Positions 10,588 to 61,700 of a stretch of DNA of 64,000 nt are shown one piece after another. Position 1 is the stretch's first letter. Every line of letters starts with the position of its first letter. Origin of the DNA: a virus; the IMG/VR virus record IMGVR_UViG_3300035670_000164, positions 6,356 through 70,355 of that record; one strand, given 5' to 3'. The notes beneath the pieces were generated by a model. The model ran no database searches, was not told where the DNA came from, and saw nothing but the letters and a program-made list of their open reading frames with translations. The position numbers were made by a program, and so were the translations under genes.

Positions 10588-10710
10588 TGAGTGCTTCTAA
10601 AATGCACCAGGATTCGTTTTAAGGACATATCGTTTCTAGGTATACAAATAGATAACTTTTTAGCTAACGTTGCTTAGAAACGATTCTCGAATGATTTAGA
10701 GGCATATTTA
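10588..10710. repeat. dispersed bipartite inverted element, copy 1 (others at ~18950-19065, 29840-29950, 39978-40090, 51316-51366, 61545-61661)
   Basis: Arm consensus cATTCTCGtgcaatTTAGAGGCATATTT; inverted arm cores are 75-78 bp apart. Confidence 0.75.
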
Positions 10711-10725
10711 AGAGGTATTTAAAAC

Positions 10726-11283
10726 ATGAATACAAATGAAGGTTTAGATTTACTAAAACAACAAGCAAAAGAATTAGGTATTACACATTCACCTAATATT
10801 GGTATTGAAGCTTTGCAACAAAAAATATTGGATGCAACTAATATACAATCTTCTACTGAAATTAGATTAGTAGATGGTTGGTTAGATAAAGTAAAACATT
10901 TAATTGCTTCACCAGAACAAGTAAAAATTATTAAAAAGAAACAAGCTGAAAAACTTGTACGAGTTAGAGTTACTTGTATGAATCCAGCTAAGTCTACAAT
11001 GGAAGGTGATATATTTACTGTAAGAAATAAACTTACTGGAGATATTAAACGATATATTCCATTTAATGCAGAAGCATGGCATATTCCACAAATTATGTTA
11101 GATATGCTTAAAGAAAAAGAATATACACATCACTATCAAGTTAAAGGTCCTGATGGAACTCCTGTAACTAAATCCAAACAAATGAAAGAATATAATATTG
11201 AAATTTTACCTTCTTTAACTAAAGAAGAATTACAAGAATTAGCTAAAGAACAATTAGCTACTGGTAGAATTGCAAACGCATAA
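10726..11283 (+). CDS. N4 gp55-like protein
   Basis: LGITHSPNIGIEAL; KLVRVRVTCMNPAK; EILPSLTKEELQELA. Confidence 0.85.
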   Translation: MNTNEGLDLLKQQAKELGITHSPNIGIEALQQKILDATNIQSSTEIRLVDGWLDKVKHLIASPEQVKIIKKKQAEKLVRVRVTCMNPAKSTMEGDIFTVRNKLTGDIKRYIPFNAEAWHIPQIMLDMLKEKEYTHHYQVKGPDGTPVTKSKQMKEYNIEILPSLTKEELQELAKEQLATGRIANA

Positions 11284-11292
11284 GGATAAATT

Positions 11293-11613
11293 ATGTTTGT
11301 AGTAGGAACACCAATTACAATAACTGCATCAATATCAACAACACCTAATACCTATATTGTTTCTGATTTTGATATTAGAGTTATGTTACCTAATAAAACT
11401 GTAACATATATTAATGCAGTAACAACTATTTCATATACTGCACCAACAGTAACAACTACTGGAAGTATATCTTTCTCATATACACCAAATAGTGCAGGAT
11501 TACATGAAATAGTAATATCAACAGGAACAGCAGATAATCATATTGTTCGAAGTAAAACTTTATTAAATGTTATTGGTGTTTCAACTACAAAATTATTTAA
11601 TATTAAACTTTAA
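11293..11613 (+). CDS. small Ig-like / beta-sandwich structural protein
   Basis: Thr/Ser-rich beta pattern, FSYTPNSAGLHEI. Confidence 0.5.
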   Translation: MFVVGTPITITASISTTPNTYIVSDFDIRVMLPNKTVTYINAVTTISYTAPTVTTTGSISFSYTPNSAGLHEIVISTGTADNHIVRSKTLLNVIGVSTTKLFNIKL

Positions 11614-11622
11614 GGAATTATT

Positions 11623-12558
11623 ATGACAGTATCATACGGAGAAGTAGCTGCATTATATGATCCATTAATGGAAAATATTAATGCTAAATTAGTTATTGAA
11701 TTTGAAAAGAATAGACTTAAAGGTGCTGATTATGCTGCTGTATATGCTAAAGCATTAGAATCTACTTTAGCAGAAGTAGTTAAATTATTACTTGGAAGAG
11801 ATGATGATTTAATTGCTGCACAAATAGAAGCTACTTTAGCTGGTGCAGATAAAACTAAACAAGAAATTACTAATTTATCTCTTGAAGCTAATAATATTCC
11901 AAAAGAAGGTTTAATATTAGATGCTAAATTACCTAATACTATTAAAGAAGGATTAATACTAGATCAACAAAAACTAAATTTAATTGCTGAAAGAGGTAGT
12001 ATTAATGCAAGTACAGATAAACTTGTTGCTGAATTAACATTAGTACCTAAAGAAGGTAATAAATTAGATGCTGAAACAGCTAATATTAATGGTAAAACTG
12101 GGTTAATACCAAAAGAATCCGAATTAATGGATGCTAAGATTGTTAATCTATTAAGAGAAAATGATAAATTAGAGCTTGAAAAAGATATACTTACAATACA
12201 AAAAGATAATTTAACTATTGAAGGTGATAATGCTGAAAAAGTTGGTAAGAATTTAGACCAAGATTTACTAATTAAAAAAGAAGAAGTTAAAGCTAGTAAA
12301 GGTAAGGTAAAACTTACTTGTGCTGAGACATGGCTTAAAAGGGCGCAAGCATACCAAACAGATAAAGTTACTGCTTTAAAACAATGTCAAGCTGAAACAG
12401 GTGTATTAAGTGTTATGGTTGGTGCTTATTCTAGTGCAATGAATCATGACCCAGATTTAACTACACCATTTAACCAATATTCTTTAGTATCTTTAGCTGG
12501 TCAAGCAGCAGCGTCAGCTAAGAATATGGTAGATACATCAATTCAATGTAACGAATGA
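11623..12558 (+). CDS. N4 gp54-like virion (tail) protein
   Basis: EFEKNRLKGADYAAVY; repeated (I/V)PKEG..LD coiled-coil units; synteny. Confidence 0.75.
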   Translation: MTVSYGEVAALYDPLMENINAKLVIEFEKNRLKGADYAAVYAKALESTLAEVVKLLLGRDDDLIAAQIEATLAGADKTKQEITNLSLEANNIPKEGLILDAKLPNTIKEGLILDQQKLNLIAERGSINASTDKLVAELTLVPKEGNKLDAETANINGKTGLIPKESELMDAKIVNLLRENDKLELEKDILTIQKDNLTIEGDNAEKVGKNLDQDLLIKKEEVKASKGKVKLTCAETWLKRAQAYQTDKVTALKQCQAETGVLSVMVGAYSSAMNHDPDLTTPFNQYSLVSLAGQAAASAKNMVDTSIQCNE

Positions 12559-60280: not shown

Positions 60281-60601
60281 TTAAATTAAATCTTCAATAT
60301 TGTTACTAGATTTAGATATGACTAAATGATAGAAACCTGTTGAATCTTTTTCAGGGCTTTTCAACAATCTATATGTTGAAAAATCCTCTTTTGGTCCAAT
60401 CAAGTATTTATTTTTATTGTCTACATCACTTGCAGACATTTGAATAGATACTTCAACACCGTTACTGTTAAGAACAGTAATGGTTTGTTTAAATCTAGTT
60501 CCATCTTTAATAATGGAATTAGCTTTAACAATTTTGAAGCTTAAGTATTTACTGTAATCACGTTTAGTTTTAATTACAGTATTAGATTTTAAACCAGCCA
60601 T
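60281..60601 (-). CDS. hypothetical early protein
   Basis: RBS AGGAGG; has its own terminator. Confidence 0.7.
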   Translation of the reverse strand: MAGLKSNTVIKTKRDYSKYLSFKIVKANSIIKDGTRFKQTITVLNSNGVEVSIQMSASDVDNKNKYLIGPKEDFSTYRLLKSPEKDSTGFYHLVISKSSNNIEDLI

Positions 60602-60970
60602 GATACACCTCCTAAGGTATATAATTTTATGAATGCAGTTGCTTTAGCTATGAGCAACTACAAGTAATCAGGTGAGCAGGATTGCTTTACCTAATACATA
60701 AAAGAAAAACTTCGAGAACTCTAATGGTTGATAGGAACTAATAGTTCCCATAAGGAAAGAATAGTCATTGACTATTAGTTTTTAGTGTAGATTTAGTAAT
60801 TAAACAGTGTTTAATAGAGTTGATAGTATTACTATCATTTAAAATAGTATTACTACTACTAGATATAGTATTTACTACTATTTATCTATATTTACCGCAT
60901 TACTTGCAGTAATAAGAATAACTAACTACTTGATTCTATTACATATACTATTGGCATGAATATTGATGTA

Positions 60971-60999
60971 TTGACTTTTACTTAAAAATATGTTATTAT
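60971..60999 (+). promoter_or_regulatory. sigma70-type promoter, antisense to the early genes
   Basis: TTGACT-17 bp-TATTAT. Confidence 0.65.
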
Positions 61000-61005
61000 T
61001 GCGAA

Positions 61006-61378
61006 GCGTATTTACTAGCGAGCTTTACAAGTAACTAATAAATATTAATAATAGTTAGCTTCACAATAATACCACTCCTGGTTGTGTTCGGATTCCCTAA
61101 CATACCTTCATTACATTGAGTATCTATTCACTCAACACAAAGCCTTGATGTATAACCCTTAATACATAAGTAAGATGAACCATAACTGATTGGACTCTTG
61201 GCTTGTATACAAGGCTTTGAATCGTTTCGTAAATAGATACTCAACTCCAATCAGGTATGTTGTAAACTTTTAGGGTTTAGTTATGCCTGAAAGTAGTATA
61301 AAGACTATCTCTCTTGTGTATGTGTATGCTTTAAAACTTTAAGACCTAATACTCTTCGGAGTATTGGGTCTTTTTATT
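61006..61378 (+). ncRNA. candidate structured non-coding RNA (~370 nt)
   Basis: Bounded by a promoter and a terminator, no ORF of 60 aa or more, nested long-range helices over 61095-61275. Confidence 0.6.
61341..61378 (+). terminator. intrinsic terminator
   Basis: AAGACCTAATACTC-TTCG-GAGTATTGGGTCTT-TTTATT. Confidence 0.8.
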
Positions 61379-61496
61379 AGTAACACCAGTAGTAATACTC
61401 TGGATGCTTTTCTAAGATGTCATCCATATCTTGGACATTACTAAAATGTCCTAACAGTACTCCTTCGCTGTTATACAAGTGATATAAGCATTTCAT
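61377..61496 (-). CDS. hypothetical early protein (39 aa)
   Basis: MKCLYHLYNSEGVLLGHFSNVQDMDDILEKHPEYYYWCY; RBS AGGAG. Confidence 0.55.
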   Translation of the reverse strand: MKCLYHLYNSEGVLLGHFSNVQDMDDILEKHPEYYYWCY

Positions 61497-61700
61497 GACA
61501 CTACTCCTAAATTAGTTTATGGATTAATTCCAATACATAAAAGTAAACTTACGAGAATGCTCTAGGTTGATGTGAATGAACTAAACCTATAACTTTGCAT
61601 CACTTAATACGCTTTAATTCAACCACGGTCATTCTCGTGCAAATTAGAGGCATATTTGAAGTGTGTGTAATCTTGAATTAACAGAAAGTAAGTAATAGGG

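Follow-up and report, generated by a model that had tools for sequence, protein, structure and literature searches.

A dispersed family of short repeats, probably promoters, in the genome of an uncultured N4-like phage

Gene organization of the phage record

The stretch of DNA analyzed here, hereafter called the window, is 64 kb long and corresponds to bases 6356–70355 of the IMG/VR virus record IMGVR_UViG_3300035670_000164. At six loci it carries copies of a short conserved DNA repeat, whose sequence, distribution and probable role as a phage promoter are the subject of this report. All positions are window coordinates unless a base of the record or the coordinate of a related phage is stated. 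The source record is a single contig of 70,355 bp with a G+C content of 28%, and the phage is N4-like and uncultured.

The genes form two blocks of opposite orientation. The plus-strand block runs from 62446 across the record junction to 29288, and includes the N4-type major capsid gene (9084–10571, +) and a 4026-amino-acid open reading frame (ORF) for the virion RNA polymerase (vRNAP; 17208–29288, +). The minus-strand block extends from 62092 down to 29575. Both genes of the two-subunit, T7-like RNAPII are present, at 57202–58152 (−) and 56177–57181 (−), and match PHROG entries for N4-like RNA polymerase (E = 7e-49) and RNA polymerase (E = 2e-99), respectively. Among cultured phages, the capsid protein finds no match better than 50%, and megablast of 10 kb against them gave no match; the nearest capsid relatives in the protein collection (P0001–P0004) show 72–69% identity.

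Sequence and number of the repeats

The repeat has the pattern CATTCTCG-N6-TTAGAGGCATATTT, with a conserved length of 30–45 bp (28–48 nt). Five strong copies were identified, with core starts at 10682+, 29867−, 40005−, 51336+ and 61630+, together with a sixth copy at 19036+ (Table 1). A sequence-only reading of the window had placed the cores at exactly these coordinates. The 29867− and 51336+ copies have a further 20 nt upstream in common, which brings the element to ~48 nt at these two sites.

The repeats are among the top self-matches of the genome. The sequence TTAGAGGCATATTT, with no more than two mismatches, occurs seven times in the window (1.85 expected), and five of these occurrences are the strong copies; none of 100 shuffled sequences reached seven. 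A 29-nt position weight matrix (PWM) was built from the five strong copies and used to scan the whole record on both strands (140,654 positions). The strong copies scored 37–43 bits, followed by 19036+ (20.6 bits), 30188+ (15.4 bits) and 10614− (11.0 bits), the highest score among 200 shuffled genomes being 19.2 bits. When each strong copy was left out of the matrix in turn, it still scored 25.8–37.7 bits and ranked fifth or better of all positions, while 19036+ was always sixth, with 18.7–21.9 bits, about level with the largest shuffle maxima (18.1–21.9).

The 6355 nt of the record beyond the window contain no copy. A half-match at 440, which would fit a 10-kb lattice, has no core, scores below 5 bits and was taken as chance. 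Contigs from four public DNA runs, compared over 10500–30499, were either fragments of this phage without any difference or short segments of a distant one, and no variation could be read from them at the copies. A scan of viral contigs with the motif pattern gave no match, and one of metagenomes gave 16 single matches, without DNA similarity to the phage, which were read as chance or unrelated; the 14-nt core alone gave more than 119 matches in viral contigs, mostly chance.

Table 1. Copies of the repeat and associated features in the window
Position	Strand	Feature	Context
10682–10709	+	Strong copy	After hairpins 3′ of capsid gene; followed by 16 nt including AAGAGG, then ATG 10726
19036–19063	+	Sixth copy, second half one base shorter	Within vRNAP ORF, ~codon 609
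29840–29867	−	Strong copy	1 nt ahead of ATG 29838 of 87-amino-acid gene (29575–29838) without ribosome-binding site
39978–40005	−	Strong copy	Downstream of two tRNA genes and terminator; GAGG directly after; ATG 39960 at 17 nt
51316–51363	+	Strong copy with extended upstream half; core 51336	Opposes local minus-strand genes; no co-oriented ORF after
61630–61657	+	Strong copy	Opposes local minus-strand genes; faces divergent region 62093–62445 and plus-strand block
10596–10623	−	Inverted partial copy, upstream half only	Matches 39987–40014 (upstream half of 40005 copy) at 25 of 28 nt
18957–19019	−	Two inverted cores: CGAGGATT (18960–18967), TGAGAATG (19012–19019)	Within vRNAP ORF
29936–29943	+	Weak 7/8 core match	Inside small minus-strand ORF; marginal (P ~0.07), may be chance
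40063–40088	−	Intrinsic terminator	11 pairs and T run; includes the right core placed at 40076 by the sequence-only reading
61530–61576	−	Inverted arm, perfect core, different second half (TTTACTTTTATGTATTGG)	Member of second repeat family
60691–60737	−	Second-family member	76% identical over 45 nt to 61532–61576; upstream of gene 60281–60601
60135–60156; 62174–62190	−	Second-family shorter members	

Gene context of the repeats

Three of the five strong copies (10682+, 29867− and 40005−) end 16, 1 and 17 nt, respectively, before the ATG of a co-oriented gene. Two are preceded by such structures, 10682+ by the hairpins 3′ of the capsid gene and 40005− by a terminator. The gene at 29575–29838, preceded by the 29867− copy, is followed by a terminator at 29326–29347. 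Neither this gene nor its ortholog in the related phage G001 (described below) has a ribosome-binding site, and their N-termini align; a leaderless mRNA starting at the motif end would fit this arrangement. The hairpin located after 61630+ is a terminator only when read on the minus strand.

From the repeat family, its gene context and its occurrence in relatives we infer that the repeats are probably phage-specific promoters, most likely read by RNAPII. This reading is favored because (i) the tight, strand-specific sequence continues up to a purine-rich stretch, (ii) three copies abut a co-oriented start codon or ribosome-binding site, (iii) at least two copies stand behind hairpins or terminators, and (iv) copies are kept before genes in relatives. 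They point to a family of promoters, an outcome that the sequence-only reading had itself named as contradicting its proposal, an array of DNA gyrase or other protein-wrapping sites; judged from the sequence, that proposal appears to be overturned.

Within the promoter interpretation, the main alternative to RNAPII is the host polymerase acting with a phage activator. Among the matches to a sigma-70-type consensus listed (−35/−10 hexamers 16–18 nt apart), none coincides with a copy of the motif, although CATATT could serve as a −10 element together with an activator. Matches of the sigma-70 type were below the shuffled level in all three scans of 9000–64000 (42 vs 71, 43 vs 89 and 70 vs 93). 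A hairpin of 5–7 bp with a 3-nt loop, the feature of N4-type vRNAP early promoters, is not conserved in the six copies. As candidate early (vRNAP) promoters, GTCC-GAA-GGAC mini-hairpins were considered (45065–45075, 55635–55645, 58180–58190 and 63405–63415). Each is positioned directly after a stop codon, and at 55635 and 58180 a T-rich tail follows on the minus strand; the mini-hairpins resemble terminators and were dropped as promoters.

Copies in related phages

Two distantly related, uncultured IMG/VR phages were compared over all or most of their sequence (capsid identity 65–67%): G001 (71,974 bp, with overlapping ends) and G002 (a 38,274-bp fragment). In G002, a copy at 952− scored 24.5 bits (shuffle maximum 20.0) and lies ~80 nt before the first minus-strand gene. 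The copies in G001 rest on context and longer alignments: an upstream half at 1133+ follows a hairpin and is separated by 16 nt from the ortholog of 29575–29838, and a fuller copy at 43999− is antisense within the early block, as is 61630+ in the window. The positions of the copies partly differ between the relatives. A look-alike near 62127 of G001 was at first taken for a tRNA-following copy, but ARAGORN and Rfam find no tRNA there, and it is now regarded as a weak look-alike behind a hairpin.

The copy within the vRNAP gene

The 19036+ copy encodes A-F-S-N-D-L-E-H-V, within a peptide that aligns with those of the relatives (F/Y-S-N-D), and is written with codons that are seldom used in the vRNAP gene (relative synonymous use: TTC 0.12, TCG 0.01, AAC 0.12 and GAG 0.12). 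The orthologous vRNAP codons in G001 and in L001 are common ones, and the DNA there is not motif-like. When the synonymous codons of all 68 called genes were shuffled, none of 300 trials reached the score of 19036+ (20.6 bits; null maximum 9.9 on average, 16.2 at the largest). The score was likewise not reached in any of 500 shuffles within the vRNAP gene alone, nor when the site was recoded synonymously 100,000 times.

Both relatives also carry copies embedded in the vRNAP gene, at ~codon 1179 (G001) and ~codon 1020 (G002). They are antisense, match the 48-nt copies of the window at 30–32 of 48 nt, and differ from 19036+ in codon position as well as in orientation. Codon-shuffle tests of these copies gave P = 0.11, 0/300, 0.007 and 0/300 (P ≤ 0.007 in three of the four tests), and a short matrix gave no significant result (P = 0.064 and 0.51). 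Since the copy in the window uses rare codons and is not reached by synonymous shuffles, and since both relatives have embedded copies, its position appears to be under selection. This conclusion agrees with the sequence-only reading, which had seen in the copy inside vRNAP a sign of selection on position.

Spacing of the copies

The core-to-core gaps between the six copies are 8354, 10831, 10138, 11331 and 10294 bp, so that the tiling at about 10 kb described by the sequence-only reading was reproduced. The coefficient of variation of the gaps is 0.099, a value reached in 0.04% of random trials with uniform placement (P = 0.0004); this test is post hoc. For the five strong copies alone, a best-period test was not significant (P = 0.13 for uniform placement, and P = 0.08 when sites were drawn among 25 intergenic gaps), and the regularity thus depends on the sixth copy, 19036+.

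The ends of the record are incomplete: the last ORF is truncated and has no continuation at base 1. Record bases 1–370 (~370 nt, ahead of the window) are G+C-rich, non-coding and unlike the remainder, and 63926–64000 form the other end; sequence may be missing from the ends, or the ends may be chimeric. Across the junction of this incomplete record the gap is at least 19.4 kb.

Neither the embedded copies nor the ~10-kb spacing is explained by a promoter role alone. Both would be accounted for if the repeats were DNA sites selected for position, at a density of about one per 10 kb, where a phage or host protein acts on the CATTCTCG box in replication start (as a promoter-plus-unwinding origin), genome entry or genome organization, with transcription being secondary. 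Under this interpretation, which we consider rather unlikely, the rare-codon copy in the 12-kb vRNAP ORF and the embedded copies of both relatives fall into place, as do the inverted half-sites found ~76 bp away at three of the six loci (see below) and three copies with no gene to serve (36242− of G002, 51336+ and 61630+). The evenness of the gaps, on which the interpretation leans, nevertheless hangs on the weakest copy and on a post hoc test, and the incomplete record ends do not allow the lattice to be traced round the genome. Moreover, three strong copies adjoin the start of a gene that they are oriented to serve, and no candidate binding protein was found, the ten neighbouring proteins containing no DNA-binding Pfam domain.

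A specific form of the same idea, to which we give a similarly low probability, is that an element needed about every 10 kb was written into the 12-kb vRNAP gene by means of rare synonymous codons, and that the same happened independently, with other codons and in the other orientation, in both relatives. It is possible that a promoter would then double as a spaced loading point that primes replication, drives or paces transcription-dependent genome entry, or resets topology. If true, this would amount to a genome-wide positional code of a kind not known from N4-like phages.

Inverted arms and a second repeat family

According to the sequence-only reading, most loci contain two inverted arms at near-constant spacing. 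Inverted PWM matches are indeed enriched 40–120 nt upstream of the copies (Fisher χ2 = 35 on 12 degrees of freedom; same-strand control 11–15), and the inverted partial copies, where present, lie ~76 bp upstream. Tested site by site with a 13-nt core PWM, an inverted arm is present at 10.6, 19.0 and 61.6 kb (P ~0.01 each), marginal at 29.9 kb (P = 0.07) and not supported at 40.0 kb (P = 0.50) or 51.3 kb (P = 0.41). At 40.0 kb a weaker pair had been proposed at 39998/40076, but its 40076 arm is the stem of an intrinsic terminator. The 51.3-kb locus has no inverted arm, as the remark that only the right arm is clear at 51336 had implied, and comparison of the loci bore out that the central spacer is not conserved. 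None of the six loci has a complete second arm, the best inverted partner reaching 11.0 bits against 37–43 bits for the strong arms. The 10596–10623 arm also forms the 3′ side of the 14-pair hairpin located downstream of the capsid gene (10575–10621), and the inverted core 76 bp upstream of 19036+ uses the rare Arg codon CGA (0.03 in the vRNAP gene).

The arms had suggested strong gyrase sites, in which symmetric arms are wrapped on host gyrase and the enzyme is loaded at regular intervals. The regular spacing, the inverted arms ~76 bp apart at some loci, the GCAT-like words that recur every 10–11 nt inside the strong arm (by inspection), and the gyrase dependence of N4 early transcription, as stated in PMC4496689, are all compatible with such sites. 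The element is, however, asymmetric and has no full second arm at any locus, two of the arms (10.6 and 40.0 kb) are limbs of a hairpin or terminator, and the conservation is tight, sequence-specific over 28–48 nt and tied to gene starts. We therefore regard gyrase sites as the least credible of the explanations considered, and the gyrase or protein-wrapping proposal gained nothing from the sequence. Taken as a whole, the earlier observation is partly confirmed and its interpretation partly supported.

It is also very improbable that the repeats act at the RNA level, as processing sites or long-range stems formed in read-through transcripts by pairing of the inverted cores. The left and right cores can pair on the motif strand with the help of G-U pairs, and five of the six 146-nt regions fold better than shuffled sequences (z from −2.8 to −3.8). 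These folds, however, vary from locus to locus and consist mostly of local hairpins rather than of the two cores; at 61.6 kb, where the cores do pair, z is only −1.0. RNAalifold on the six copies gave −0.99 kcal/mol with none of four pairs covarying, that is, no conserved RNA fold, and Rfam has no match at any copy, its only two matches in the window both being tRNA (40168–40241 and 40251–40340). The second of these, on the minus strand beside tRNA-Met, is a tRNA-like gene that reaches the Rfam tRNA threshold (39.8 bits) without an ARAGORN call.

A second repeat family includes the inverted arm at 61.6 kb, which precedes a 39-amino-acid ORF (61377–61496) with a good ribosome-binding site, AGGAG. 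All four members of the family are found within the first 2 kb of the minus-strand block, upstream of its first small genes. The members end in TTTTCTTTTATGTAyTGG, and three of the four have a CTCG-type core at the same 20-nt distance. This family may represent another promoter class, early or host-type.

The partial or hybrid copies at 10596–10623, 61530–61576 and 60691–60737, the rank of the repeats among the self-matches of the genome and the partly different positions in relatives would all be expected of mobile or recombination-prone promoter-hairpin cassettes that spread in the genome, their spacing being coincidental. Such cassettes leave unexplained how the vRNAP copy was made by synonymous changes in a homologous stretch, and no target duplications or flanking repeats were found at the copies; we judge this origin improbable.

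Two unrelated viral IMG/VR contigs, L061 (~8270–8400) and L095, were found to share 26 of 27 nt with 39992–40018, the upstream half of the 40005 copy. The stretch concerned is non-coding, ends in CCACCA and a T run, and has no ARAGORN or Rfam name; the proteins of these contigs are not similar to those of the phage. One of the 16 metagenome matches, in contig L020 (1580–1640, −), closely resembles the 51336 copy and lies between a sigma-70-like promoter and the gene for the terminase large subunit, with a 7-pair hairpin.

Weight of the evidence and proposed mechanism

Several observations weigh against the promoter interpretation. The 51336+ and 61630+ copies, two of the five strong ones, have no co-oriented ORF after them and oppose the local genes, and the 36242− copy of G002 occupies precisely the interval that separates the last minus-strand gene from the vRNAP end, with no gene after it. 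The 19036+ copy is in sense within the vRNAP ORF, so that a transcript starting there could not yield the complete protein; the first in-frame ATG after it, at 19224, lacks a ribosome-binding site. Since the inverted half-site at 18960 also uses the rare codon CGA, the second arm may itself be selected. Nor would a promoter role lead one to expect even spacing at 10 kb. The PWM scan, which the sequence-only reading had proposed for this genome and its relatives, singled out the five strong copies and the sixth here as well as 952− in G002, whereas the top scores in G001, with a PWM of 29–30 nt, lay within the shuffle null, the second half of the motif having diverged in that phage. No comparable repeat was found in the nearest cultured relative, Pseudoalteromonas phage pYD6-A, and the public runs that contain the phage include no RNA run.

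With these points taken into account, the repeats remain best read as phage promoters, which at two or three loci would stand directly behind a hairpin or terminator. In the proposed mechanism, a box upstream, with the sequence (G/C)ATTCTCG or alternatively GAATCCTCG, would be placed about two helical turns ahead of an AT-rich melting stretch, GGCATATTT, leading straight into a purine-rich start (GAAG, GAGG or AAGAGG). The best-candidate polymerase is the phage's own two-subunit T7-like RNAPII, and the box may be recognized either by this polymerase or by a DNA-opening cofactor. The predicted start of transcription is the purine directly after ATATTT. The 10682+, 40005− and 29867− copies would restart transcription of the genes that follow them, and 51336+ and 61630+ would give rise to transcripts antisense to the early block, directed towards the plus-strand (late) block.

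Middle-class promoters are poorly defined in N4-like phages; those of the LUZ7 relatives, according to PMC9163698, were not identifiable before direct mapping of start sites. For an uncultured clade with AT-rich genomes, the tight consensus of these repeats offers a concrete candidate for recombinant RNAPII. The vRNAP-embedded copies in three related phages, together with the even spacing in this one, raise the question of whether regulatory DNA sites are placed by distance as well as by gene.

Other features of the window

In the divergent region between the gene blocks, a 33-bp AT-rich unit is present in two tandem copies (62338–62403) near seven consecutive G residues; the physical genome ends or start signals could lie in this region. 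The top self-match of the genome is a perfect 26-bp direct repeat (51624–51649 and 52387–52412) flanking a gene for a 205-amino-acid ATPase. The sequence CTTGGTTTA and its variants are strongly over-represented, occurring for instance 9 times in this phage (0.69 expected) and 12 times in G001 (0.67 expected); in both, the copies are located mostly within genes, often on the non-coding strand.

Comparison with known systems

The strong gyrase site of phage Mu resembles the loci described here in its overall size of ~130 bp and, at some of them, in its two arms. It is, however, a single, central site with degenerate arms, unlike the six tight, asymmetric and gene-linked repeats of this phage. 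Promoter-stem-loop cassettes of the T4 type are likewise short modules of a conserved promoter and a hairpin between gene blocks, but they carry host-type early promoters and are tied to gene shuffling, whereas the present repeats show no sigma-70 pattern and include copies within an ORF.

Promoters of the single-subunit RNA polymerases of the T7 group consist, as the repeats are proposed to, of a block that reaches the start site. An AT-rich upstream portion is followed in it by a G-rich middle, an AT-rich region that melts and a start rich in purines. In both cases several near-identical copies are present per genome, some of them without a gene to serve, and some T7 promoters serve replication rather than genes. 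The block described here extends further upstream (to about −28, and to −48 in two copies), and the polymerase is a split, truncated relative.

The N4 middle promoters, read by the gp15/gp16 RNAPII with the cofactors gp1 and gp2, offer a similar setting: the phage group is the same, the RNAPII genes are homologous, and an AT-rich stretch lies at the presumed start. The minimal promoter of N4 RNAPII is described as an AT-rich stretch from −7 to +2, with an opening factor needed (PMC4496689, section 2.2); the N4 model of a promoter-opening factor acting upstream would fit the conserved box, which could be the site of such a factor. N4 middle promoters are described as weakly defined, in contrast to the tight 28–48-nt consensus of this phage, and N4 middle transcription is mapped to the left half of the genome, whereas copies here are found also in the late block and inside an ORF. 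N4 RNAPII is reported to favor a start at T (PMC9163698), unlike the purine that follows the motif here, and the N4 vRNAP early promoter is a hairpin of 5–7 bp that has a 3-nt loop and its centre near −11 (PMC4496689).

In LUZ7, an N4-like Pseudomonas phage analyzed by ONT-cappable-seq, the middle promoters are GC-rich hairpins, in contrast to the repeats of this phage, which share no conserved hairpin. The same study (PMC9163698) describes promoters of the later classes throughout the LUZ7 genome, many of them antisense to other blocks; these late and middle antisense promoters provide a precedent for the 51336+ and 61630+ copies.

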